NCBI GenBank assembly: GCA_903231505.1
Contig: CAFBRK010000074.1
Coordinates: 6,640 to 30,639, forward strand
Reading direction: 5' to 3'
From: Olavius algarvensis associated proteobacterium Delta 3
GTDB taxonomy: Bacteria > Desulfobacterota > Desulfobacteria > Desulfobacterales > CAFBRK01
Length of the DNA stretch: 24,000 nt
Shown here: piece by piece, positions 3,036 to 24,000 of the stretch
Position numbering within the stretch: position 1 is the stretch's first letter
Layout: each line of letters begins with the position of its first letter
Position numbers and translations under genes: made by a program
The notes under the pieces: model-generated
Seen by the model: the letters and a program-made list of their open reading frames with translations, nothing else
What the model was told of the DNA's origin: nothing
Databases searched by the model: none

Positions 3036-3986
3036 TCAGGATAACGGTTCGGTGACGCTGTCCGAAGTGCCGGGAAGCGAAGATGTGGCGGGTTTCCGCC
3101 TATAAAGCTCCCAGAGTTGAGACAACAGCATTCCGGCCAACATGAGTGCGCAACCGGTGAATCCTCTGGCGGAGAGCCGCTCACCCAGAAGAATCCATCC
3201 TCCCAGGGCGGCAAACACCGCTTCCAGACTCAGAAGAATGGCTGCATGGGCCGGGTGCGCATGGCGCTGGGCGACGACCTGGAGGGTATAGGCGATCCCT
3301 ACGGACATAACCCCGCCATAAAGGATCGGAACAAGTGCATTGACAATTCCGTCCATGGTCATGGTCTCGAAGATGACGGCCGTGATCAGGCTCAGGGCGG
3401 AACAGGCGGCATACTGGAAACAGGCGAGTTTCAGGGAGTCGGTGCGGGGAGACAGCCATCCGATAATCAGCACGTGGCCGGCCCAGAAAAACGCTCCGAT
3501 CAATTCAAGGAGATCGCCGAAGGCGATGGTAAAATTATCCGTGACGCTCAGCAGGTAGAGTCCCACCGCCGCCAGAAAAGCACCGACCCAGGTCCCGCCG
3601 CCCGGTCGCTGTCCCCAGATCAGCCCCAGAATCGGCACGATGACGACATACAATCCCGTGATGAATCCGGCATTGCCGGCTGTTGTATAGACCAGTCCGA
3701 CCTGCTGAAGAGATGCCCCGGCAAACAGTGCCAGGCCTGTGAGCGCGCCGGCGGCGATCAGTGCCTTTCCACCCACGGGATCGTGAGGCGATTCAAAGCG
3801 GTCTCGCCTGCCGGAGTTACGGATGATCATTGGAAGCAGCACGAGGCTGCCGAGCGCAAACCGGATGCCATTGAAGGTAAACGGCCCGACATGATCCATA
3901 CCGACCCGCTGGGCCACGAAGGCAAAGCCCCAGATCGTGGCGGTCACCAGCAGCAGTGCATCGGATTTTAGGGTGGTGGTTTGCAT
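3036..3986 (-). CDS. EamA/DMT-superfamily transporter (10-TM drug/metabolite exporter family)
   Basis: MQTTTLKSDALLLVTATIWGFAFVAQRVGMDHVGPFTFNGIRFALGSLVLLP is followed by two EamA-like hydrophobic halves. The track ORF extends to 4070, but ATG 3986 begins the conserved region. Confidence 0.85.
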   Translation of the reverse strand: MQTTTLKSDALLLVTATIWGFAFVAQRVGMDHVGPFTFNGIRFALGSLVLLPMIIRNSGRRDRFESPHDPVGGKALIAAGALTGLALFAGASLQQVGLVYTTAGNAGFITGLYVVIVPILGLIWGQRPGGGTWVGAFLAAVGLYLLSVTDNFTIAFGDLLELIGAFFWAGHVLIIGWLSPRTDSLKLACFQYAACSALSLITAVIFETMTMDGIVNALVPILYGGVMSVGIAYTLQVVAQRHAHPAHAAILLSLEAVFAALGGWILLGERLSARGFTGCALMLAGMLLSQLWELYRRKPATSSLPGTSDSVTEPLS

Positions 3987-6335: not shown

Positions 6336-7265
6336 ATGAGCCGCCAACTGCGCAACAACACCCAGATGCTTCGCCGGGGTGCCATCTATGTGCTGCCGAC
6401 CCGCACGGGCCTGGTATTCATCGCAGTGCTGGCAGCGATGCTGATGGGGTCGGTGAATCACAACAACAACTTCGCCTTCCTGCTGACGTTTCTGCTGGCC
6501 GGCATTCTCTTCGTGTCGATCTTCGACACCCATCAAAACCTCACCAAACTGGAAATCCAAGCGATCACCGCCTCCCCCGTGTTCCTGAACCGAACGGCAT
6601 TTTTTGAATGTCTGATCCGGAATCACGGTCCGAAGCGATGCAGCGTGGCGTTTCAATTTCCGGGATATCCGGAACGATTGCTCGCCGATCTGGCCCCTGA
6701 CAGCATCGACTGCGTGCGGGTGCCCTTGAAACCCATCCGGAGAGGTGTCGTCAAACCGGAAAAAATGCGCATATCCACGCGATACCCTCTGGGCCTGTTT
6801 CGAGCATGGGCCTTCATCGCCGTCGGCACCGACTGTATCGTGTATCCGGCACCGGCACCGGGAGCGTTTCGAACCGATCCCGCTCCGGATACCCTTGGCA
6901 GCGGCACCGCGCCTTCGAAGGCGAGAGGCTCTGCCGATTTCCAGGGATTGACCGCCTACCAGCCCGGAGATCCCTTGCAGCACATATCCTGGAAGGCGTT
7001 CTCCCGAGAGCAGGGGCTCTACGTCAAAACCTTTGCCGACCCGTCAGGGGAGACTATCACACTGGATTGGGGGGCTATCCGGGGGGCCGCTCCGGAACGG
7101 AAACTTTCCCGTCTGTGTGACATGGTCTTGAAGGCAGATCGCCTTGGGATGGCCTATGGATTGGCCCTGCCGGGACAACGCATCCCACCCGCCCGGGGAG
7201 AGACCCACAAACGTGCCTGCCTGCGATCCCTGGCGCTTTTTGGGAATCCGGAGGCCATGCCGTGA
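6336..7265 (+). CDS. DUF58-domain protein (MoxR partner)
   Basis: Two N-terminal TM helices (LVFIAVLAAMLMGSV..., FAFLLTFLLAGILFV) and the DUF58 core DFQGLTAYQPGDPLQHISWKAFSREQGLYVKTF. Position between MoxR and a transglutaminase is typical. Start ATG 6336 (MSRQLRNN) is preferred; 6288 and 6306 are alternatives. Confidence 0.8.
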   Translation: MSRQLRNNTQMLRRGAIYVLPTRTGLVFIAVLAAMLMGSVNHNNNFAFLLTFLLAGILFVSIFDTHQNLTKLEIQAITASPVFLNRTAFFECLIRNHGPKRCSVAFQFPGYPERLLADLAPDSIDCVRVPLKPIRRGVVKPEKMRISTRYPLGLFRAWAFIAVGTDCIVYPAPAPGAFRTDPAPDTLGSGTAPSKARGSADFQGLTAYQPGDPLQHISWKAFSREQGLYVKTFADPSGETITLDWGAIRGAAPERKLSRLCDMVLKADRLGMAYGLALPGQRIPPARGETHKRACLRSLALFGNPEAMP

Positions 7266-13337: not shown

Positions 13338-14312
13338 GTGAGGAACCGACCGTTCACATGGTATTGCGGATCGATCTGCCTGTTGGCGGCCACTCTGATA
13401 CTTTTTGTTGCGGGCTGCAGCGGTGACGCGGACTACAAGCCCGTCGATCTCACCCAGACCATCAAGGTCAAGGCGATGGAGGATTACATTGCCGAGAAAG
13501 ATACACTGCGCGTTGCGGTGGCGGCAATGATTTCCCCCAAGGAAACCCTGGTCTATTATCAGCAGCTGCTCGATTATATCGGCGATCAGTTGGGATACAC
13601 GGTTCGGCTCGTCCAGCGAAAGACCTACGGTGAAGTTAATGAACTGTTTCCGAAACGCCAGGTCGATCTGGCGTTTATCTGCACCGGACCCTACGCCCTG
13701 GGAAAGGATATGTTCGGTTTTGAAGCCCTGGCGACCCCGATCGTCCGCGGTGAGCCTTTCTATCGATCCTATCTCATCGTAAACAAAAACAGCCCCTACA
13801 AAAGCCTGGCGGATTTGCGCGGCAGGATGTTTGCCTTTACCGATCCCGAGTCGAACACCGGAACCCTGGTGCCGAACTTCTGGCTCGGCGAAATGAACGA
13901 GCATCCGTCCGATTTTTTCGGTAGTGTGGCATATACCTACAGCCACGACAATTCCATAATGGCCGTTGCAAAAGGCCTTGTCGATGGTGCTGCGGTCGAT
14001 GGACACAAATGGGAATATTACCGAATCCGAAACCCCTACTATACGGACATGACGCGTGTCATCCGGCGCTCCGAGCCTTTCGGAAGCCCGCCACTGGTGG
14101 CATCCGTGTATTTGCCCGAAGATGTGAAGGCCCGGATCCGGGATCTGCTGTACTCTATGCATGACGACAAAAAAGGAAAAGCGATTCTTGGTGAATTGAT
14201 GATTGAACGGTTTGTTGCGCCCAAGGAAGAGTGGTATGAGACGACGCGCAGAATCTATCGGCAATTGCGGAACCGCATGATGGAGGCATCCGATGAGGCC
14301 CAAGACTCTTAA
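13338..14312 (+). CDS. PhnD-like (phosphonate/oxyanion ABC-type) periplasmic substrate-binding lipoprotein, probably a sensor accessory
   Basis: Lipobox LILFVAGCSGD. PhnD-type fold motifs: LRVAVAAMISPKETLVYYQQLLDYIGDQLGYTVRLVQRKTYGEVNELF, VDLAFICTGPY, FAFTDPESNTGTLVP. No ABC permease or ATPase genes are adjacent. GTG 13338 has GAGGAG 9 nt upstream; the track uses TTG 13308. Confidence 0.8.
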   Translation: MRNRPFTWYCGSICLLAATLILFVAGCSGDADYKPVDLTQTIKVKAMEDYIAEKDTLRVAVAAMISPKETLVYYQQLLDYIGDQLGYTVRLVQRKTYGEVNELFPKRQVDLAFICTGPYALGKDMFGFEALATPIVRGEPFYRSYLIVNKNSPYKSLADLRGRMFAFTDPESNTGTLVPNFWLGEMNEHPSDFFGSVAYTYSHDNSIMAVAKGLVDGAAVDGHKWEYYRIRNPYYTDMTRVIRRSEPFGSPPLVASVYLPEDVKARIRDLLYSMHDDKKGKAILGELMIERFVAPKEEWYETTRRIYRQLRNRMMEASDEAQDS

Positions 14313-14556
14313 ACGGTCCATCATGCTGGCCGTCGCGCTGCTGATCGTCGCCAGCGCGACGGGGATCTCCCAGATTGTGGCCCACCGATACGGTCAGAGC
14401 CTCGTCAGGGCAGCCACCACCCGGGCAGAAAATATATCGCACACAATCTTGCGCTTATCGCCGCGGACAAGGTGCTTATCAACGATCTGGTGGCCCTCCA
14501 GAAACTTCTGGACGACCAGATGGCTGCCGAATCAGGGCTCGTTTACCTGTTCGTGA
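14293..14556 (+). pseudogene. Detached N-terminal (first TM helix) fragment of the downstream sigma-54 activator, separated from it by a 1-nt frameshift
   Basis: ATG 14293 overlaps the upstream gene by 20 nt. It encodes MRPKTLKRSIMLAVALLIVASATGISQIVAHRYGQSLVRAATTRAE, a signal-anchor. Beyond about 14430 this frame becomes nonsense, while frame 3 reads KYIAHNLALIAADKVLINDLVALQKLL and continues into the main ORF. Confidence 0.6.
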
Positions 14557-16514
14557 GCAAAGGTGGAAGTGTCATCACCCACACCTTCGGTGACGGAATG
14601 CCGGTGCGGCTGATTGATGCCAATCTCCCGCTTCACCCAAACAGCGGGCACCTGGAAAAACTGATCACCCAGGACGGGGAACATATTCTGGACGTTGCCT
14701 GGCCGATTTTCGACGGCAAAGCCGGGATTCTTCGATTGGGCCTTTCTGAAGAGCCGCTTCGAAGGCAGGTGGCAGACCTCTGGCTGAGGATGAGCCTGAC
14801 GACCGGTGTCATCGTATTGATATCTCTTTTTGTCAGCCATTTGCTGATCAATCGGCTGACCTGGCCCTTGGTCAGGCTGACAAGAGCGGCTGAAGAAATT
14901 GACGCGGGCACGCTGGACAGCCAGGTTGACATCGAAGGCCGTGAGGAAATCACCAAGCTGGCTCGCGCCTTCAATGGCATGCTTTTGCGGATCCAAACGT
15001 ATACGAAACAGCTGAAGGAGTATAATGTCAGGTTGGAGCGGAAAAATCTGGAACTGGACCGGGCCCACCGGCAATTGCAGACCTCATTTTCCATTTCACA
15101 AAAACTAGCCTCGCTTCCAGGGCTGAATCCGATATGCCAGTTTCTGCTTCGGACCTTAACGGGTATCGTGGAGTGCCGTGAGATGAGCTTGCTGGTTTTC
15201 AACAGTGCCGAACGTCGCATCACCCTTGCGACACCCAGGGCCCTCCAGAGTGTTGACTCCGAAACCTACGACGATGTCTACGACGCATTGGCCAGACACA
15301 CCGAAATGTCGATTATCGGACAGGCCGACATTTCGAAGCTGCATTTGCCGGAACCCCTTGACCGATCGAACCAGATTGCGCTGTTTCCGATCCGATATCA
15401 CGATATGTCGCTCGGGGCCTTGATTGTGACCTGCCCCGGAGATTGCCGATGCGTCCGGCATGAGCTCGATATCGTTACAATGATCCTCAATCAAGCCGCC
15501 GGTGCGATCCATCGCGCCAAGATCCATGAAGAAGAGATTCGTGATCTTCGACTACGTGTGGAGGCAGATACCGGCTTTAGCGGACTGGTCGGCAAGGACC
15601 CGAGCATGCAGGTGGTATTCAAACTGATCGAAGACGTGGCGCCAACCGATACTACGGTTTTAATTCAGGGGGAAAGCGGCACCGGAAAGGAACTAGTCGC
15701 CCAGGCCATCCACGATAAGAGCCATCGGCATGGCAGCCCCTTTGTGATCATCAATTGTTCAGCCTACCCTTCCACCCTTCTGGAAAGCGAGCTGTTCGGT
15801 CATGAGAAAGGAGCCTTTACCGGAGCCCTGCGCCGCAAGAGGGGAAAGTTTGAGCGGGCTGACGGAGGCACGGTTTTTATGGATGAAATCGGGGAGATCG
15901 ATCCGGCCGCCCAGACGAAATTGCTTCGTGTTCTGCAGCAGCAGACCATCAACCGGTTGGGCGGCGGCCGATCGATGAAGGTCAACGTGCGGATTCTGGC
16001 CGCCACCAACAAGAACCTCCTCGAGGAAGTACACAGGGGAACCTTTAGAGAGGATCTTTTCTACAGGCTGAATGTGATACCGATACAGCTACCGCCATTG
16101 AGAGATCGCCGGAGGGACATCCACTTGCTGGCCAGGCATTTTCTGGCCAAATTTGCCCATGAGCAGGATAAACCCATTACGGGGTTCCGAAGCGACGCGA
16201 TGAAGCGCCTGCTCGACTATTCGTGGCCGGGCAATGTGCGGGAGCTGGAGAACACCATCGAACATGCGGTCGTTCTGGCCAAAGGTGCCCTGATTGAACC
16301 GAAGGATCTCCCGGCCCCGGTCGCCGCGGCAACCACCTCTCCTGATCCCAAGGCCGTCCGCAGCATCGTGCATTCCGAGGAAAACCTGATTCAAAAAGTG
16401 CTCAGGGAGTGCCAATGGAACAAGACCGAAGCCGCCCGGCGTCTTGGTATCAGTCGAAGCACCCTTTATGAGAAGTTAAAAAAATATCAGATCATGGATC
16501 CCACGGTCCACTGA
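14472..16514 (+). CDS. Sigma-54-dependent transcriptional activator (bacterial enhancer-binding protein) with extracytoplasmic domain-TM-HAMP-GAF-AAA+-Fis HTH architecture
   Basis: TM helix LTTGVIVLISLFVSHLLI, then HAMP (NRLTWPLVRLTRAAEEIDAGTLD...ITKLARAFNGML). Next a GAF-like region, Walker A GESGTGKE, the sigma-54 contact loop GAFTGA, Walker B VFMDEIGE, and the C-terminal HTH NKTEAARRLGISRSTLYEKLKKY. The open frame extends upstream to 14313, so the true N-terminus is probably the 14293 fragment. Confidence 0.9.
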   Translation: MLINDLVALQKLLDDQMAAESGLVYLFVSKGGSVITHTFGDGMPVRLIDANLPLHPNSGHLEKLITQDGEHILDVAWPIFDGKAGILRLGLSEEPLRRQVADLWLRMSLTTGVIVLISLFVSHLLINRLTWPLVRLTRAAEEIDAGTLDSQVDIEGREEITKLARAFNGMLLRIQTYTKQLKEYNVRLERKNLELDRAHRQLQTSFSISQKLASLPGLNPICQFLLRTLTGIVECREMSLLVFNSAERRITLATPRALQSVDSETYDDVYDALARHTEMSIIGQADISKLHLPEPLDRSNQIALFPIRYHDMSLGALIVTCPGDCRCVRHELDIVTMILNQAAGAIHRAKIHEEEIRDLRLRVEADTGFSGLVGKDPSMQVVFKLIEDVAPTDTTVLIQGESGTGKELVAQAIHDKSHRHGSPFVIINCSAYPSTLLESELFGHEKGAFTGALRRKRGKFERADGGTVFMDEIGEIDPAAQTKLLRVLQQQTINRLGGGRSMKVNVRILAATNKNLLEEVHRGTFREDLFYRLNVIPIQLPPLRDRRRDIHLLARHFLAKFAHEQDKPITGFRSDAMKRLLDYSWPGNVRELENTIEHAVVLAKGALIEPKDLPAPVAAATTSPDPKAVRSIVHSEENLIQKVLRECQWNKTEAARRLGISRSTLYEKLKKYQIMDPTVH

Positions 16515-16690
16515 TCCCCTGGAGGTCAATTCCTTGTCAATGGCAGCCTTCGCCTGGGATAACCCCTTGCCCGGCTGTTATAGCAGTCGTCATAAATGTT
16601 CCGATTGAAGAAGGTACGGGTCCGGGGTCTGGATCTTCCCGCTGTTTGCAGCAATCGTCCCTTGCTGTCCGGTCGTTGTTTGAAAGGTTC

Positions 16691-16707
16691 GTCCGGATAT
16701 CGGACAT
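16691..16707. promoter_or_regulatory. Candidate enhancer (UAS) site 1: GTCCG-N5-CGGAC palindrome
   Basis: gtccggatatcggacat. It shares the arms GTCCG/CGGACAT with site 2, about 63 bp away, and lies about 240 bp upstream of the -24/-12 promoter. Confidence 0.5.
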
Positions 16708-16753
16708 CATAACAATTTAAAATTATATCATTTTAACTATCTTCAGGATTTCA

Positions 16754-16772
16754 ATGTCCGAAAATCGGACAT
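16754..16772. promoter_or_regulatory. Candidate enhancer (UAS) site 2: perfect palindrome ATGTCCGA-AAA-TCGGACAT
   Basis: Perfect 8-3-8 inverted repeat, about 175 bp upstream of the sigma-54 promoter. Related half-sites are tgtccgg at about 16666 and cgggacat at about 16923. Confidence 0.55.
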
Positions 16773-16938
16773 CTGAAACGCGTTTGAGATTCACATCTCC
16801 TCCTCCGGCAGTGATGCCCTGCGCAACAACCTAATCGGCGATCACGATCCCATATATTCATAACATATCAAAATTTCTACAAAATATTCTATTTTGAAAC
16901 CCCGTTAAACCGAACAGATACATCGGGACATGCTGTTG

Positions 16939-16953
16939 TGGCATCAAATTTGC
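16939..16953 (+). promoter_or_regulatory. Sigma-54 (-24/-12) promoter of the molybdoenzyme operon
   Basis: TGGCAT-caaat-TTGC matches the consensus TGGCAC-N5-TTGC at 9/10 specified positions with correct spacing. An AT-rich tract lies upstream (about 16850-16915). It is about 50 nt upstream of the first operon gene, whose GGAGG RBS is at 16988-16992. Confidence 0.7.
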
Positions 16954-17002
16954 GGATGCATGTGCACGATGTGACTCGGTGGTGGTCGGAGGACTCTAAA
17001 AA

Positions 17003-17416
17003 TTGTCCAACCAGTCGATATCTTACGGAAAAATTTTAATTCTCAGCACAGATGAAGAGGAGGTCAAGACCCTCATCCATGAGATTGAACACATGAACTA
17101 CCTGGTCCAGGCATTCGGAGCCATAGCCGATTTCAAGGATCAACTCCGTGCGGAACCCTGTCTCGCCGGGATTCTCGACATCGACAGCGTACCCCTGGAC
17201 AACCGCACCATTCGGGAACTGACGGTCCTGTTCCCTTCCGTCGGTTTTTTATGCACATCAAGAGAACGTTTTCATCCCCAACTCAAGGAAGCCATCAGTT
17301 TTCACATTTTCGCATGTTTATACAAACCGGTAGATCCGGACGAACTGCTTTACTGGTTGAGATGCATCCGGGAAAGCGAGGCGGAATCGAGTGATCCACC
17401 GGCGGCTCCGCGCTAA
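17003..17416 (+). CDS. Stand-alone response-regulator receiver (REC)-like protein with a degenerate acidic pocket
   Basis: REC pattern: KILILSTDEEE (beta1, S-T-D in place of D-D), AGILDIDSVPLD (candidate phospho-Asp), GFLCTS (T/S), FACLYKPVDPDELL (K-P). No output domain. TTG start with GGAGG 10 nt upstream. Confidence 0.6.
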   Translation: MSNQSISYGKILILSTDEEEVKTLIHEIEHMNYLVQAFGAIADFKDQLRAEPCLAGILDIDSVPLDNRTIRELTVLFPSVGFLCTSRERFHPQLKEAISFHIFACLYKPVDPDELLYWLRCIRESEAESSDPPAAPR

Positions 17417-17493
17417 AGCCGAATTCCTGGCCTCACGGATTTGGCGCCGGCGCATCGGTTCGACGCAACAACAAGCAATCACGGGGAGGTAAA

Positions 17494-20073
17494 ATGGAAA
17501 ACTCGAAGATCAAACGCAACGACCTGATGCAGGAATTTCTCGACAATATTTCCCTGTCGCGAAGATCCTTCATCAAGGCATCAGCGACCACCGGGGCCGC
17601 ATTTGCTTTGGGAACAGGACTCAAGCCTGAACTCAAGGCATTTGCAGCCGCAGGAGACGTTTCCAACGGAAAGGGGCAGTGGCTGCCGGCGACCTGCCAG
17701 GGGTGCACGTCATGGTGTTCCAAGCAAGTTTATGTGGTCGACGGCAGAGCCGTCAAGATCCGTGGAAATCCCAATTCAAATGTCAACGTGGGAGCAGGCT
17801 GTGTGAGGTCTCACCTGTCCCTGCAACAGGTCTATGACCCGGATCGGATCAAGACACCGATGAAGCGGACCAACCCGAAAAAGGGCCGTAATGAAGATCC
17901 CAGGTTTGTTCCGATCACCTGGGACGAGGCGCTGGGCACCATCGCCGACAACATTATGGAGCTTCGGAAAAATAATGAAACCCATAAGTACATGCTCATG
18001 CGAGGGCGGTATTCCTATATGCGGGATGTACTTTATGACCGAATGACCAAAATCATCGGTTCTCCCAACAACATTTCCCACAGTTCCCTGTGTGCCGAAG
18101 CGGAAAAGTTCGGCCCTTACTACACCGAGGGGATCTGGAGCTACCGGCAGTACGACGTTTTGAATTCCCATTACATCTTGCTATGGGGAGCCGATCCCCT
18201 GGCGGCCAACCGGCAGGTTTCCTATTATTCGAAAGTCTGGGGGGACGTTGTAGACAAGGCCACCATCGCCATCGTCGAACCTCGATTGTCGGCATCGGCA
18301 GGCAAGGCCGATGAGTGGCTTCCCATCAAACCGGGCGAGGACGGTGCCCTGGCCGTTGCCCTATCTCACGTGTTGCTCGCCGAAGGGCTCTGGTACAAGC
18401 CGTTTGTCGGGGATTTCAAGGAAGGCAAAAACCTGTTCATCAGCGGGCAGACGGTGGATGAGGACACATTTGAAGAGCTTCACACCAACGGTATCGTCCA
18501 ATACTGGAACCTTGAATTAAAGGATAAGACACCGGAATGGGCGGCGGCCATAACAGGGATTCCCGCCGAGCAGATTCTCCGTGTGGCCAGAGGATTCGGC
18601 GTGGCGGCACCCCACGCCATATCATGGCTGGGCGGCGGTCCCTGTATGCAGGTCCGCGGCGGATATACGGCCATGGCGGTCCACGCGCTCAACGGCATTG
18701 TGGGTGGGGTAGACAATTTCGGCGGCACCATGAAAGCGAACAAGGAGTATACGTCGAAGTTCCCGAAGCCGAACAAGTTCATGGACGATATCGCCAAAAA
18801 GGGCAAGAAACACGAAAAGATCGATCAGCGCGGCCGGCTTCATATCCCCTGCATAAAATCCGGAAAACCCGGCGCGGGGGTCATCACCAATAACGCCGCC
18901 GACGGCATCCTGAACGAAGATCCCTACGAAATTAAAGTGGCTATCGGCTACATGAACAATTTTTCGTTTTCCGCCCCCCAGCCGGAACGCTGGGAACGGG
19001 CCCTCTCCAAAATCCCGTTTTTGGTCCATATCACCACCAACGCGTCTGAATTTTCCTGGTTTTCCGACATCGTTTTGCCGGATACCCACCACATGTTCGA
19101 AAAATGGGGATATGTCAAAGCCATCGGCAACGGCTATCGCCATGTCACGCTGATGCAGCCCATCGTTAAAAACCTATGGGATTACAAAATCGACGAAACC
19201 GAAATCCCCTGGTTGATCGCCGAGAAATTGTCCGAGCGCGGGTTCGACAACCTGTTGCGACACTACAAGACGTACAAGGATCCGGAAACCGGGAAAGAGC
19301 CGGAAAACGAGAAAGACTTCGCCTTGTATGCCTTGAAATACGCCACCCAGAATCTCTGGGATCCTTCCAAGTACAAGGGCGGCGACAAGTTCAACGGATG
19401 GGAGGAATTTCGGAAGGTCGGCGTGTGGAACTCGAATCCGTATCCGCATCGCAAGCGCTGGGGAAACATGAAGACCAAAACCAAAAAGTTCGAATTCTAC
19501 AGCGAAACGCTCAAGGCGGCTCTTGAAAAACACGCTGAAAAGCATGGCGTTTCGGTCGACGACGTGATGGAGGCAACAAATTATTTGGCGCGCGGTGAAC
19601 AGGCCTTTATCCCCCATTATGAAGAGCCCTACATTCTCGGAGATGAAAAAACCTATCCGTTTATCCATGTGGATCATAAATCCCGTCTCAATCGTGAAGG
19701 CAGATCGGCCAATTGCTCCTGGTATTTTGAATTCAAGGATCTGGATCCCGGTGATGACGTCTGGGATGACGTGGCCAAGATCAATCCGATGGATGCCCAA
19801 AAACTCGGTATCAAGACAGGGGATCAAATACGGCTCGCATCGCCCACCGGGAGTCTGGTCTGCACGGCCAAACTCTGGGAAGGGGTTCGCCCCGGCACAG
19901 TGGCCAAGTGTTACGGCCAGGGGCACTGGGCCTACGGCCAGCTGGCCTCAAAAGAATTTGGAAAGGTGCCGCGCGGGGGCAGCAGCAATGACCTGATTCC
20001 CGCGCAGTATGAGGCATTGAGCGGCAGTTCCGCATATTATGCCGTAACCCGGATAAAAATCGAGAAGGTATAA
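17494..20073 (+). CDS. Tat-exported molybdopterin (bis-MGD) oxidoreductase catalytic subunit, PsrA/PhsA/TtrA/ArrA-type; substrate not assignable from sequence
   Basis: Twin-arginine signal LSRRSFIKASATTGAAFALG. N-terminal FS0 cluster motif CQGCTSWCSKQ...GAGCVR. Probable Mo-ligand Cys in ISHSSLCAEAEK. Size (859 aa) and the following FeS and NrfD subunits fit the family. Confidence 0.88.
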   Translation: MENSKIKRNDLMQEFLDNISLSRRSFIKASATTGAAFALGTGLKPELKAFAAAGDVSNGKGQWLPATCQGCTSWCSKQVYVVDGRAVKIRGNPNSNVNVGAGCVRSHLSLQQVYDPDRIKTPMKRTNPKKGRNEDPRFVPITWDEALGTIADNIMELRKNNETHKYMLMRGRYSYMRDVLYDRMTKIIGSPNNISHSSLCAEAEKFGPYYTEGIWSYRQYDVLNSHYILLWGADPLAANRQVSYYSKVWGDVVDKATIAIVEPRLSASAGKADEWLPIKPGEDGALAVALSHVLLAEGLWYKPFVGDFKEGKNLFISGQTVDEDTFEELHTNGIVQYWNLELKDKTPEWAAAITGIPAEQILRVARGFGVAAPHAISWLGGGPCMQVRGGYTAMAVHALNGIVGGVDNFGGTMKANKEYTSKFPKPNKFMDDIAKKGKKHEKIDQRGRLHIPCIKSGKPGAGVITNNAADGILNEDPYEIKVAIGYMNNFSFSAPQPERWERALSKIPFLVHITTNASEFSWFSDIVLPDTHHMFEKWGYVKAIGNGYRHVTLMQPIVKNLWDYKIDETEIPWLIAEKLSERGFDNLLRHYKTYKDPETGKEPENEKDFALYALKYATQNLWDPSKYKGGDKFNGWEEFRKVGVWNSNPYPHRKRWGNMKTKTKKFEFYSETLKAALEKHAEKHGVSVDDVMEATNYLARGEQAFIPHYEEPYILGDEKTYPFIHVDHKSRLNREGRSANCSWYFEFKDLDPGDDVWDDVAKINPMDAQKLGIKTGDQIRLASPTGSLVCTAKLWEGVRPGTVAKCYGQGHWAYGQLASKEFGKVPRGGSSNDLIPAQYEALSGSSAYYAVTRIKIEKV

Positions 20074-20085
20074 GGAGGCAAACAA

Positions 20086-20811
20086 ATGCCAAGATATGCG
20101 ATGGTCATCGACCTCCAACGGTGTGTCGGCTGCGGGTCTTGCAGCATTTCGTGTCGAAATGAAAACAACGTGTCCGAAGGAATCTATTGGTCACACAAAA
20201 TCACAGAGACGTCGGGTACATTTCCCAACGTCCGTTATCACTACATACCGACGCTCTGCAATCACTGCACGAATGCGCCCTGTGCCCAGGGGTGTCCCAC
20301 CAACGCCATGCACAAGCTCGACAACGGCATCACCATGCACGATCCGAAAAAGTGCATCGGCTGCAGGTACTGTATGATCAATTGCCCTTACGGCGTGATC
20401 TATTTCAACTGGAAAGACGCCCATCCCTCGTGGAGGGGAAACAAAGCGGTGATACAGGGGGCGACCAGCTCCCCCGCCGAGGAAGTGCGCAAGGTGGGTG
20501 GCAACGGAACGCCGTACTACAATCCCGAACGGGACGAAACGCTTCCCGGCATACGACCGAAAGGGGTCGTTGAAAAATGTACTTTTTGCGATCACCGTCT
20601 CAAAAGAGACAAACTGCCAAGTTGTGTCGAATCCTGCCCGGCCGATGCCAGAATCTTTGGAGACCTTGACGATCCTCAAAGTCAGGTGAACCAATTGCTT
20701 GGAAAATTCAGACCTTTTCGACTGAAGGAAGCGCTGGGGACCGAACCTGCGGTGTTTTACATCAGAGATTTCAGCGCAGCCGGTTACCCAAGGACAAAAG
20801 GAGGGATTTAA
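20086..20811 (+). CDS. Four-cluster [4Fe-4S] ferredoxin electron-transfer subunit (PsrB/DmsB-like)
   Basis: MPRYAMVIDLQRCVGCGSCSISCRNENN, CNHCTNAPCAQGCP, CIGCRYCMINCPYG, CTFCDHRL...CVESCP. Confidence 0.9.
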   Translation: MPRYAMVIDLQRCVGCGSCSISCRNENNVSEGIYWSHKITETSGTFPNVRYHYIPTLCNHCTNAPCAQGCPTNAMHKLDNGITMHDPKKCIGCRYCMINCPYGVIYFNWKDAHPSWRGNKAVIQGATSSPAEEVRKVGGNGTPYYNPERDETLPGIRPKGVVEKCTFCDHRLKRDKLPSCVESCPADARIFGDLDDPQSQVNQLLGKFRPFRLKEALGTEPAVFYIRDFSAAGYPRTKGGI

Positions 20812-21915
20812 ATGAAACGTCAACTGTGGATCGGTATTCTTGTCGCAGGCATCCTGCTGGGGCTTTGGACGACTTTCAAAGTATACACGGCCGGCTTTAC
20901 GGTGTATGCAAAAACAGACGTGCTGGTATGGACGCTGCCATTGTCGACCTATATCTTTTTGAGTCTGACAAGCGCCGGACTGGCTTTTGTTTCTTCAATC
21001 CCGGTTGTTTTCGGTATCAAGCGGTACGAAGCAATTGAAAAACGTACGGTTTACCTTGAAATTGCAGTCCTGCTCGGTTCCTTTGTGTGCCTTATTCTGC
21101 ACCTTGGCGCACCATTGAAGGTCGTTTATATTCTTCTGTCACCCAATCCGTCATCCCCACTGTGGTGGCTGGCCGTGCTCTACATGGTCTACTTCGTTCT
21201 TCTGGTGGCCGCATTCTGGAGAATACATACTGGGAAGATGAGCAGAGCACTCGGTACCCTCGTGTTTCTGATAGCCATTTTTACATCCACGACCCTGGGT
21301 TGGTTGTTGGGAATGACCGATGCGAGACCATCTTTAAATGCATCGTTTTTCTCGTTTTATTTTCCGCTTACCGGCTTTGCTTCGGGGTTGGCTGCTTTGA
21401 TTCTGTTCTGTATTTTGGATGAAGAGTTGTCGGGGCAGGAGAGATCGGAAGGACACACGGTGTTATACAACGAGGCTGCCAGATTGATGGGTATCACAGC
21501 AGGCATGGTCCTGGTGTTATTCTTGTGGCGCACGATTAGCGGCGGGATTTCATCTACCGCGATAGAATATGGGGCCTTCAGACATATGATCGGATCCATA
21601 CCATATAACATCGAGTTCTGGCTGGGTCTGGTGGTCCCGACGGTGTTGATGCTGATTCCTTCAATTCGAGCCACTGCTTGGGGCAAATTGACCGCCAGCG
21701 CCTTATTGCTCGTCGGCATGTTTGCCGGGCGGTTGGAATTTGTGCTGAGCGGCGTGGTCCGGCCCCTGGGACAGATGGCCGAAGGCCGCCCTGAAATCGT
21801 AAGTTATATACCGACCGTATACGAGGTCCTGGTGGCGTTGTTCGGGCTGTCGGTCATGTTGTTGATCTATACGCTGGGTGAGCGATACCTGAAACTCGAA
21901 GCCGTTCCGGAATGA
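20812..21915 (+). CDS. NrfD/PsrC-family integral membrane quinol-interacting anchor subunit
   Basis: 367 aa, strongly hydrophobic with 8 or more predicted TM helices. ATG follows the subunit-B stop directly (TAAATG). The position is typical of PsrC/NrfD. Confidence 0.8.
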   Translation: MKRQLWIGILVAGILLGLWTTFKVYTAGFTVYAKTDVLVWTLPLSTYIFLSLTSAGLAFVSSIPVVFGIKRYEAIEKRTVYLEIAVLLGSFVCLILHLGAPLKVVYILLSPNPSSPLWWLAVLYMVYFVLLVAAFWRIHTGKMSRALGTLVFLIAIFTSTTLGWLLGMTDARPSLNASFFSFYFPLTGFASGLAALILFCILDEELSGQERSEGHTVLYNEAARLMGITAGMVLVLFLWRTISGGISSTAIEYGAFRHMIGSIPYNIEFWLGLVVPTVLMLIPSIRATAWGKLTASALLLVGMFAGRLEFVLSGVVRPLGQMAEGRPEIVSYIPTVYEVLVALFGLSVMLLIYTLGERYLKLEAVPE

Positions 21916-22031
21916 TGCTTCGGTTCGATATTTCCATAGTTATGTAGTCCCGTCCTTCCGTTCTCTTCTCCGAACAGTCGAGGGCGGCGAGCCTGACAAA
22001 CTTGATTTGTAAAGTTTGACGGAGATTCACA

Positions 22032-22717
22032 ATGAATAATGCTGACCTGCTGAAATATGAGAAAGCTCGCGGCACCGCCTACAAGAATATCGCAGCATGT
22101 TATCACCCGCCCGGCATCGGTTTACATGAAACGTTGATGGAACTCGAACGCCAGGCAGAGATCCTGGGTTCGGAGGTTTCTCCTCATGTTGAAGTGATGC
22201 GGAGCGGATTTGCCGGCCGGGCAGATGACATCGATGACCTTTGTGTCGACTTTGCGCGGCTATTTATCGGGCCGTATGCCCTGCTGGCGCCGCCCTACGG
22301 GTCGGTATATCTGGACGGCGAGCGCAGAGTAATGGGTAACTCAACGATGCATGTACGCTCGTTTTACAGTGACGCCGGGCTTGAGCTCTCTGCCCAGTTC
22401 AAAGAACCTCCGGATCATATTTTGCCGCGGAGCTCGAGTTCATGCATTTCCTGGTTTTCAAGGAAGTTGAGGCAACGTTGACTCGTCATATGGACCGGGC
22501 CTTCGAATACGTTGATCAGCAGAGCGTGTTTATAAAAAACCATATTGCCGTCTGGGTCCCCCGGTTCGTCCAACAGGTGCTTAAGAATGCGGATACCGGA
22601 TTCTATAAAAATCTGGCTCTGGCAACAGATCTGTTTATCAAAGTCGAACATGATCGGTTTCTCTCCCTCACATCCGGAGCCGGCGGCGAAGCCCTGCAGG
22701 AATCTACATTACGTTAA
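22032..22717 (+). CDS. TorD/DmsD-family redox-enzyme maturation chaperone, interrupted by a 1-nt frameshift (track ORFs 22032-22481 and 22442-22717)
   Basis: Family pattern DFARLFIGPYALLAPPYGSVYLDGERRVMG...EPPDHI continues in the -1 frame as AAELEFMHFLVFKEVEA.... The junction is the T4 run at 22420-22423. One extra T would give PPDHIFAAELEFMHFL. Confidence 0.75.
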
Positions 22718-22728
22718 TTTAGGAGACG

Positions 22729-23409
22729 ATGATCGTGAAGGCCTTTCATGAACTGTTGAAAACCTCCGCCGGAGCCCACGGACATCTTTGCCCGGGGCAG
22801 GTCGTGGGCGTCCGCATGGCCATGCTGGGATGCCGGCTGATCGGCCTGGATGAACCGACCCGCCGGGACCAGATCAAGAAATTGATCGTATACGTCGAAA
22901 TGGACCGCTGCACGGCCGACGCGGTGGCCCACGTCACCGGCGTAAAGCTGGGACGCCGGAGCCTGAAATTCATGGATTACGGGATCATGGCGGCGACGTT
23001 CGTCAATCTGGAAACGGGCCAGGCATTCCGGGTGATTTCCACCGAGGAAGCGCGCAGCCTCGCCGCCCTCTATGCGCCGGAGGTGGAGGAAAAATCGGCC
23101 CGGCAGCTGGAGGCCTACAAGCGGATGCCCGACAGCGTGCTGTTTCGCGTGCAGCGGGTAAACGTAAAGTTTAACGAGTGGGATCTGCCGGGGCCGACCC
23201 GCAGCAAAGTTTCCTGCAGCCGCTGCGGGCAGGTGGTCCGGGATCGGCGGGAGCTGGTCGAAGGCGGTCGGACATTGTGCAAGCCGTGTTCGAAAACCTG
23301 TTATTTCTCCCACGCGCAGGAAGTGGCGTGGCCCGAAATGAACTTTGTGCCGGAGCCCACCGCTGGAAGGTGCGATCGGAACATCAAGCGACATCGTCGC
23401 GTTTCATAA
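22729..23409 (+). CDS. FmdE/FwdE-family protein with C-terminal zinc ribbon
   Basis: AHGHLCPGQVVGVRMA is the FmdE-family H-x-C-P-G motif. The DRC motif is present, along with a C-terminal CSRCGQVV...CKPC ribbon. GTG 22735 has better RBS spacing than ATG 22729. Confidence 0.8.
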   Translation: MIVKAFHELLKTSAGAHGHLCPGQVVGVRMAMLGCRLIGLDEPTRRDQIKKLIVYVEMDRCTADAVAHVTGVKLGRRSLKFMDYGIMAATFVNLETGQAFRVISTEEARSLAALYAPEVEEKSARQLEAYKRMPDSVLFRVQRVNVKFNEWDLPGPTRSKVSCSRCGQVVRDRRELVEGGRTLCKPCSKTCYFSHAQEVAWPEMNFVPEPTAGRCDRNIKRHRRVS

Positions 23410-23468
23410 AAGCGTTGCACGCTTTTTTTCGCGCTGGAATAACATCTTAAACACGAGGAGAGCATGCC

Positions 23469-24000
23469 GTGTTAAAGAAAATCAAAGTCGAAGATGCCGT
23501 CGGAACCCATCTGGCCCACGATATCACTGAAATCCGGCCCGGAGAATTCAAGGGCCCCGCCTTTCGAAAAGGCCACGAAGTCTGCAATGAAGACATCTGC
23601 CGCCTGCAAAAGCTGGGGAAACACCACCTGTATCTCATCGATCTGGACGAAGACGAGATCCATGAGAACCAGGCGGCATCGATTCTGGCGAACAGCCTGG
23701 CCGGAGAAGGTATCGTCTGGGAAGACAACTCGAAGGAGGGGAAAATCGGACTTCACGCGGGATGCGACGGCCTGCTGACCATTGACGCCGCCGCCCTGGC
23801 GGCATTCAATATGGTCGATGAAGTCATGTGCGCCACCCTGCACAGTCACACACTGGTCAAAAAAGGTGAACTGGTTGCGGCCACCCGCGCCATTCCGCTG
23901 GTGATGAAACGGGCGCCGGTGGAGCGTGCTGCCGCCATTGCGGCCCAAAACGGGGGGGTGCTGTCCGTCAACGCCTTGCGAAGGGCCAGGGCCGGTTTGG
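23469..24000 (+). CDS. Molybdopterin-binding protein of the MoeA-like family (5' part; continues beyond the window)
   Basis: The GTG 23469 frame, with GAGGAG 8-9 nt upstream, is open to the window end. It reads VLKKIKVEDAVGTHLAHDITEIRPGEFKGPAFRKGHEVCNEDICRLQKLGKHHLYL..., matching the recalled N-terminus of MoeA-like molybdopterin-binding proteins. It is absent from the ORF track because no stop lies in the window. Confidence 0.65.
   Translation, partial: MLKKIKVEDAVGTHLAHDITEIRPGEFKGPAFRKGHEVCNEDICRLQKLGKHHLYLIDLDEDEIHENQAASILANSLAGEGIVWEDNSKEGKIGLHAGCDGLLTIDAAALAAFNMVDEVMCATLHSHTLVKKGELVAATRAIPLVMKRAPVERAAAIAAQNGGVLSVNALRRARAGL

Follow-up and report, generated by a model that had tools for sequence, protein, structure and literature searches.

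To our knowledge, arsenic oxyanion sensing has been known only as a three-protein relay made up of a binding protein, a kinase and a regulator. In the ArrX-ArrS-ArrR system of Chrysiogenes arsenatis and Desulfurispirillum indicum (PMC5908839), the gene for an ArrX-type protein lies just before that of a membrane sensor and near the arr genes. ArrX of C. arsenatis is an arsenate-binding sensor protein (PMC5908839; structures 6x6b and others), and ArrS ends in HisKA_3 and HATPase_c domains and passes its signal to a regulator on a separate polypeptide, of REC-GerE (NarL-type) architecture. The AioX-AioS-AioR and ArxX-ArxS-ArxR systems, whose binding proteins belong to the same subfamily, sense arsenite and serve oxidases; their kinases transfer phosphate to an NtrC-type REC-AAA+-HTH regulator, a sigma-54 activator that acts on palindromes upstream of a -24/-12 promoter. 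Here we analyse a stretch of 24,000 nt (the window; contig CAFBRK010000074.1, positions 6,640-30,639, assembly GCA_903231505.1; all coordinates below are those of the window) from the 94% complete genome of an annelid-associated bacterium. Its region 13338-23409, in which the main genes all lie on the plus strand (Table 1), probably holds an arsenate-sensing cassette without a kinase, followed by an operon for a respiratory arsenate reductase; this circuit is most likely inactive in the strain from which the window derives.

The first gene of the cassette encodes a lipoprotein of the PhnD superfamily (Pfam Phosphonate-bd, E 5e-64), whose signal peptide terminates in the lipobox VAGC with a cysteine that is invariant across 11 homologues; an earlier reading made from the sequence alone (the sequence-only reading) had recognised both the fold and the lipobox. 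The closest solved structure is ArrX 6x6b (E 6e-54), followed by AioX (2e-40), HtxB (5e-17) and PhnD (8e-11), which places the lipoprotein nearer to ArrX and AioX than to the transport proteins PhnD, PtxB and HtxB. When aligned to 8ed5, it carries Y/C/Y/S/T/H/D at the positions of the AioX pocket residues Tyr88, Cys106, Tyr131, Ser161, Ser163, His192 and Asp210 (named in PMC5908839). Six of these seven residues are identical, the remaining one being a Ser-to-Thr replacement, and all but the Asp are invariant in the 11 cassette homologues. The lipoprotein is thus predicted to be an ArrX-like member of the AioX/ArxX/ArrX sensing subfamily, and it may bind an arsenic oxyanion selectively. Species-representative genomes scanned with this protein contained 385 relatives, the best 80 of which are the related loci considered below; the closest of them, L001, served as the reference for an intact arrD. 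The stop codon of the arrX-like gene (14310-14312) lies beyond the ATG of the regulator gene (14293), giving the 20-nt overlap that had been pointed out previously, and the same overlap is present in the called genes of L001, L003 and L005.

The second gene encodes the activator, which in its rejoined form is a protein of 739 aa comprising a first transmembrane segment (TM1, residues 9-30), a periplasmic domain (31-163), a second transmembrane segment (TM2, 164-187) and a HAMP domain, followed by a GAF domain, an AAA+ domain (PF00158, E 5e-71, with EKGAFTGA in the translation) and a Fis-type HTH_8 domain (E 1.6e-16). The GAF domain is weak in Pfam (E 0.0074); nonetheless, the NifA model aligns over this region. 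The order of domains read from the sequence alone, with an extracytoplasmic domain between two transmembrane segments and HAMP, GAF, sigma-54 AAA+ and HTH domains behind them, is therefore right for the intact gene, whereas in the window this gene is split by a frameshift. Neither a kinase domain nor a fused receiver was found in the activator with Pfam and NCBIfam, and no kinase gene belongs to the cassette, whether in the window or at the related loci with called genes. Residues 47-227, spanning the periplasmic domain, TM2 and HAMP, share 28% identity over 187 residues with the ArrS kinase (E 6e-20); in D. indicum, arrX is followed by a gene for a 498-aa kinase (sCache-like, HAMP, HisKA_3, HATPase_c) and then by one for a REC-GerE regulator. 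The periplasmic domain was modelled from the L001 orthologue with 77 sequences (predicted local distance difference test, pLDDT, 88.7), the L001 activator being 84% identical to that of the window and 89% over this domain. The model combines a five-stranded sheet with one long helix and another at the C-terminus, and among known structures it is most similar to the Cache/PDC sensor domains of CitA, WalK and Tlp3. Taken by homology, the activator appears to be an ArrS-type sensor half fused to GAF, AAA+ and HTH output domains in the place of the kinase. The rpoN gene is present in the genome. Four cysteines of the GAF domain (Cys294, Cys380, Cys384 and Cys386) are 95-99% conserved in 75 homologues, although GAF is otherwise the least conserved domain of the activator; the periplasmic domain is conserved like the others (mean column value 0.66). 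We infer that these cysteines may bind a metal or arsenite or hold an iron-sulfur cluster, which would constitute a second, cytoplasmic input.

The spacer between the activator gene and the downstream operon contains two palindromes and a sigma-54 promoter (Table 1), all three of which had been picked out from the sequence alone and stood up to the analysis; nearly all the features of that reading were recovered at the positions it gave, far beyond chance expectation. The palindromes, 65 bp apart and about 240 and 175 bp upstream of the promoter, are the only matches to TGTCCG-N5-CGGACA with zero or one mismatch in the whole window. The L001 spacer is 74% identical to that of the window, with the palindromes at the same 65-bp spacing, and the conserved, footprint-like blocks between the two coincide with the palindromes, the half-site at 16666, the promoter and the start region. 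This half-site, previously placed at about 16666, proved to be an exact TGTCCG; a further one proposed near 16923 is imperfect (CGGGACA) and poorly conserved. Statistics were gathered on 69 upstream regions covering all three operon types described below, in comparison with shuffled sequences. A YGGYAY-N5-TTGC element is present within 260 nt of the receiver gene in 65 of the 69 loci (0.09 in shuffles), and in 51 of them there is at least one palindrome matched at no fewer than 10 of the 12 positions (1.1 in shuffles). The palindrome spacer is 5 nt in 64 sites, other lengths occurring in 1-6 sites each, and the distances from palindrome to promoter cluster at about 165-190 and 230-255 nt. The half-site of the cassette resembles the DNase-footprinted AioR site GTTCGGATTTCCGAAC (PMC5335332), the spacer being one base shorter in the cassette. 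Scans of 12700-17500 for sigma-70 promoters and terminators gave results at chance level, and no promoter was found there for the arrX-activator gene pair. The window holds one other exact TGGCAY-N5-TTGC match, at 3856-3870 on the minus strand; it falls inside an EamA-family gene, has no palindrome nearby and is probably due to chance.

Table 1. Coordinates of the putative sensing cassette, its regulatory sites and the downstream operon in the window
Feature	Position	Strand	Evidence and remarks
arrX-like gene, predicted periplasmic oxyanion-binding lipoprotein	13338-14312	+	GTG start; alternative TTG at 13308
Activator, 5' piece: start codon, TM1, start of periplasmic domain, out-of-frame residues, stop	14293-14556	+	Translation, hydropathy; 87 aa
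ATATAT run with two extra bases, polymorphic	14432-14437	+	Contig comparison, runs X1-X10
Activator, remainder in another frame: sCache-like domain, TM2, HAMP, four-cysteine GAF, AAA+ (GAFTGA), HTH_8	14439-16514	+	Pfam, NCBIfam
Extra TGTCCG half-site	16666-16671		Exact; conserved in L001
Distal palindrome CGTCCGGATATCGGACA	16690-16706		One mismatch to TGTCCG-N5-CGGACA
Proximal palindrome TGTCCGAAAATCGGACA	16755-16771		Perfect; 8-3-8 across 16754-16772
Sigma-54 -24/-12 promoter, TGGCAT-N5-TTGC	16939-16953	+	50 nt ahead of receiver TTG start
Predicted stand-alone receiver-fold protein, first operon gene	17003-17416	+	137 aa; TTG start, GGAGGA ribosome site
arrA, predicted Tat-exported molybdopterin subunit	17494-20073	+	859 aa; NCBIfam ArrA, structure-sequence match
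arrB, predicted four-cluster iron-sulfur subunit	20086-20811	+	NCBIfam ArrB 324 bits (cut-off 450), Fer4_11
arrC, predicted NrfD-type membrane anchor	20812-21915	+	Pfam NrfD E 8e-19
arrD, predicted TorD/DmsD-type chaperone, frameshifted	22032-22717	+	Pfam Nitrate_red_del
FmdE-family gene	22729-23409	+	Pfam FmdE E 3e-30; synteny

The cassette is not confined to this bacterium. Searches with the sensor half of the activator recovered at least 299 protein clusters, nearly all of 735-750 aa and mostly from Desulfobacterota assemblies, and the best 80 loci nearly all carry the labels of Desulfobacterota or deltaproteobacterial metagenome-assembled genomes, two having other labels. With these clusters and the 385 loci of the genome scan, almost all from Desulfobacterota, the architecture can no longer be called uncommon, as had been supposed. 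The binding-protein gene leads directly into the activator gene in 80 of 80 loci wherever the contig continues, and a receiver homologue comes next in 68 related loci, across all operon types. Three such types were distinguished: arrABCD, usually with fmdE (44 loci, the window included); an iron-sulfur (FeS), NrfD and TtrA-like set (TtrA model 459-515 bits); and a multihaem cytochrome, FeS and PhsA-like set. In some genera the operon is divergent from the sensor pair instead of co-directional. The same cassette is found at 6394-15960 of locus L088, from a different worm-associated deltaproteobacterium (Olavius sp. associated proteobacterium Delta 1), where it precedes not arr but an operon of multihaem cytochrome, FeS and a PhsA-like molybdoenzyme of 844 aa.

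The sequence-only reading had envisaged a circuit with neither a kinase nor a receiver step; the kinase is indeed missing, but a separate gene for a stand-alone receiver-fold protein opens the operon and is conserved in the cassette. Its product has no match in Pfam or NCBIfam. The AlphaFold2 model, built with 51 homologues (pLDDT 89.7), adopts a (beta-alpha)5 fold, and Foldseek ranks receiver domains highest (template modelling scores of up to 0.78), that of the sigma-54 activator DctD among them. The predicted acceptor Asp59 and Ser86, Lys108 and Pro109 are conserved in 48-51 of the 51 sequences; the Asp, Ser and Lys stand behind strands 3, 4 and 5, respectively, as is typical of receivers. 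As judged from the modelled fold, the small gene encodes a receiver (CheY-like) domain. The homologue at L053:12591-12965 contains one in-frame stop codon, which could reflect a pseudogene, a recoded codon or an error.

The promoter faces the molybdoenzyme operon it had been proposed to serve, with the gene order receiver-arrA-arrB-arrC-arrD-fmdE. The 859-aa subunit aligns over its entire length with the crystallised Shewanella sp. ANA-3 ArrA (6cz7; 1167 bits, 59% identity over 804 columns), and on the NCBIfam ArrA model it scores 1305 bits (cut-off 1600), the runner-up being PhsA with 254. The RGRY and HSSxCAEAxK segments, which we take to surround the Mo-ligand cysteine, align identically with those of ANA-3 ArrA. 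The enzyme is accordingly classed by sequence similarity as an ArrA-type respiratory arsenate reductase, an activity that is predicted; a Psr-type enzyme of unspecified substrate was considered and rejected on the NCBIfam score and the match to ANA-3 ArrA. It had been expected that the substrate would be revealed by the identity of the ligand; the assignment need not wait for the ligand, the enzyme being ArrA-type and the binding protein ArrX-like by their closest relatives, and an arr operon with an ArrX-type sensor largely answers the substrate question. In most loci of the arr type, the gene after arrD encodes an FmdE-family protein with a zinc-ribbon tail (66-89% identity), and after the FmdE gene of the window (region 22729-23999) there is an open reading frame without a family match. 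On the other side of the cassette, the region 9461-11453 contains an arsR-family regulator gene (ArsR/SmtB 72 bits) ahead of hgcA (440 bits, cut-off 275) and hgcB (120 bits, cut-off 99), so that mercury-methylation genes lie about 2 kb upstream of an arsenate cassette in an annelid-associated bacterium.

In the window, the activator gene is divided between a frame at 14293-14556 (87 aa) and a second one that is open from 14379 to 16514. The first frame reads ...TTRAENI and continues as nonsense to the stop at 14556, and sensible protein resumes in the second with AHNLALIAADKVLINDL...; deletion of two bases from the ATATAT run joins the frames into the 739-aa protein. Relative to the intact alleles the lesion is a 2-nt surplus in this AT run, and an earlier candidate, a 1-nt deficit in an A-run, was discarded. 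The window's DNA was compared with Logan contigs of the sequencing runs labelled annelid metagenome that contain it (X1-X10), not all of which are independent, as some could derive from the source sample itself or be duplicate submissions of one data set. The two extra bases are present in contigs of X1 (47x), X2, X3, X9 and X10, five runs from three studies, and missing from those of X5, X6, X7 and X8, while the X4 contig breaks at the site; one single study includes runs of both forms. The database protein P0004 has the intact 739-aa form and differs in 4 residues from the window read-through. Intact and frameshifted activator alleles co-exist in the population. Translation of the frameshifted allele stops after TM1, and a product restarted at GTG 14472 would have neither TM1 nor the first third of the sensor domain.

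A second frameshift affects arrD near 22420 (22405-22445), where two extra T are found relative to the intact 236-aa protein of L001; the frame is lost after ...FKEPPDHI and the continuation, AAELEFMHFLVFKEVEA..., lies in a different frame. This lesion was seen in four of the four runs checked, irrespective of the activator allele, whereas the frames of arrA, arrB and arrC are still open. Because the activator and arrD are both frameshifted, the circuit is probably inactive in the window strain, where the regulon looks to be decaying; other strains of the population keep an intact activator. Activator matches that come in two pieces or with a missing stretch were also noted in L045, L098 and L025, and the window strain may not be the only one in which this gene is broken.

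For the intact cassette, we propose a model in which periplasmic arsenate would be bound by ArrX, and loaded ArrX would dock on the sCache-like domain of the activator, as is thought for ArrX and ArrS. HAMP and GAF would relay the change, the AAA+ domains would assemble as a ring on the two palindromes, and this ring would remodel the sigma-54 holoenzyme and open the promoter, whereupon the receiver and the Arr enzyme would be produced. The cysteine-bearing GAF domain may contribute a cytoplasmic input, whether redox state or arsenite, and the small receiver, encoded by the first gene of the operon under the activator's control, could feed back on the activator. A more far-reaching version of this model is offered only tentatively: lipoprotein, transmembrane activator and small receiver might form a self-contained, phosphorelay-free cassette in which the AAA+ motor acts as an AND gate for periplasmic arsenate (through ArrX and sCache) and a cytoplasmic GAF cue (iron-sulfur cluster or redox state, or the product arsenite), with the self-induced receiver giving feedback in trans. 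Desulfobacterota would then have placed this cassette before Arr, Ttr-like and Phs-like plus multihaem cytochrome operons, all three perhaps linked to arsenic.

Several observations weigh against an arsenate-responsive, kinase-less switch. ArrA and ArrB both score below their NCBI equivalog cut-offs (1305 versus 1600 and 324 versus 450 bits). A membrane-anchored AAA+ ring would somehow have to reach the DNA. The acidic pair after strand 1, which in receivers binds Mg and is needed for phosphorylation, is degenerate (S-T-D in the window, with Asp at position 15 in 23 of 51 sequences and at 17 in 35 of 51), owing to which phosphorylation of the small receiver is uncertain. In three annelid metatranscriptome runs no assembled contig fell on 13200-23500, and a fourth run gave short fragments only, an outcome from which neither transcription nor the start of the transcript can be judged. 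The pocket residues are alike in arsenite- and arsenate-binding members of the subfamily and do not fix the ligand (PMC5908839). Moreover, the same cassette stands before TtrA-like and PhsA-like operons, and the tree of binding proteins is not sorted by operon type, with 14 changes of operon label compared with 16.1 in shuffles; proteins from the three contexts are intermixed and are sometimes close neighbours. Arsenate is not proven as the ligand because the cassette precedes these other operons and the binding proteins are unsorted in this way, and an argument from co-evolution of binding protein and enzyme failed on the same tree.

These last points, the three enzyme families, the tree and the shared pocket, are what favours an alternative in which the cassette works as described with another ligand (arsenite, thioarsenate, phosphate, or a sulfur or selenium oxyanion), or in which the lipoprotein is a generic presenter of oxyanions and specificity resides elsewhere. 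We consider it unlikely, though well worth keeping in view: the nearest solved relative is the arsenate-binding ArrX, the operon of the window is arr, and TtrA homologues of Anaeromyxobacter PSR-1 and Geobacter OR-1 have been reported as respiratory arsenate reductases (PMC11462812), so that the other operons may be arsenate-linked as well. Either the cassette has been re-used with small changes of specificity that are invisible in the pocket, or the other enzymes act on arsenic species; that pocket residues do not reveal specificity was found already in PMC5908839, and by analogy with the reported TtrA homologues it is plausible that the Ttr-like set acts on arsenic. A rather improbable reading places the main control of the activator in the cytoplasm, with the four-cysteine GAF domain (responding to oxygen or redox state, through an iron-sulfur cluster, or to arsenite) or the small receiver in command and the periplasmic module as an accessory. 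The persistence of the four cysteines in an otherwise variable domain and of the receiver gene across all operon types would fit it; however, the periplasmic domain is as conserved as the other domains and homologous to the kinase sensor that works with ArrX, and the binding-protein gene is never absent from the related loci.

It is scarcely credible that the lipoprotein serves a phosphonate or phosphite ATP-binding cassette (ABC) importer, encoded elsewhere, as its binding component and adjoins the regulator by accident. Pfam and NCBIfam do assign it to the PhnD/PtxB superfamily, yet it reaches 143 bits on the PhnD equivalog model, below the cut-off of 261, and ArrX and AioX are far closer to it than PhnD, PtxB and HtxB. 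Its gene overlaps that of the activator, and the two occur as a pair at every related locus. The window contains no ABC partner genes, in agreement with the sequence-only reading, and a distant transporter was looked for through its permease: no PhnE scored above the family cut-off in the 94%-complete genome (best 60 bits versus 216.7), which also has no second strong member of the lipoprotein's family. With no PhnE and a score under the PhnD cut-off, a transport role was rejected. We give little more credence to the idea that the regulator only looks split, through a mistake in sequencing or assembly, or that a programmed or phase-variable frameshift restores the full-length protein. The site is a short AT dinucleotide run and both forms occur in the population, as this idea would have it. 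However, since the insertion recurs in five runs, at up to 47x and from three studies, some runs possibly not being independent, and is lacking in four others, it is an allele and not an error, and assembly error was rejected as the cause on contigs of several runs that carry either form. Efficient slippage would call for a run of more than three AT units, a frameshift signal was not noted, and the second insertion, in arrD, is consistent with decay.

Like ArrS, the sensor of the window follows an ArrX-type gene near arr genes and has a homologous periplasmic, transmembrane and HAMP part; unlike ArrS, it ends in GAF, sigma-54 AAA+ and HTH domains, and the sole receiver is the small separate protein. 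AioXSR and ArxXSR also end in a sigma-54 activator, and the palindrome GTCCG-N5-CGGAC recalls the AioR site GTTCGGATTTCCGAAC; in the cassette, however, a single polypeptide serves as both sensor and activator, and its target is a reductase. Compared with an XSR system, the cassette has no histidine-kinase S component and no R component with a fused receiver. The membrane-anchored, kinase-less version of XSR logic put forward from the sequence alone is thus borne out by the ArrS homology of the sensor half, the pairing in 80 loci and the conserved palindromes and promoters, and needs amending for the receiver that is present and the activator that is frameshifted. In TorT/TorS and TtrS-type sensors, as proposed for the cassette, a periplasmic module reports an oxyanion or oxide to the membrane sensor of a molybdoenzyme operon, but these sensors are histidine kinases with response regulators, and we know of none that is a sigma-54 activator. 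ToxR/CadC-type proteins resemble the cassette activator as single membrane-spanning, DNA-binding polypeptides without a phosphorelay, but are winged-helix sigma-70 activators and not AAA+ ring ATPases. Searches of full texts, most subscription journals excepted, turned up no account of a kinase-less sigma-54 activator that spans the membrane and is paired with ArrX.

In summary, the cassette is a kinase-less variant of the known XSR arsenic sensors for which no description was found in the literature searched; it drops the phosphotransfer step and places the sigma-54 AAA+ activator in the membrane. It is widespread in relatives of sulfate reducers, which mobilise arsenic in sediments, and therefore probably sets when arsenate-respiration genes switch on in sediments. 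The fixed enhancer motif and promoter make the prediction of targets simple, including Ttr-like and Phs-like enzymes without an assigned substrate, and an arsenate switch that needs one protein and no kinase would make a compact component for biosensors. Furthermore, the co-existing activator alleles, together with the fixed arrD frameshift, constitute a natural experiment on the loss of arsenate respiration in an annelid-associated bacterium.

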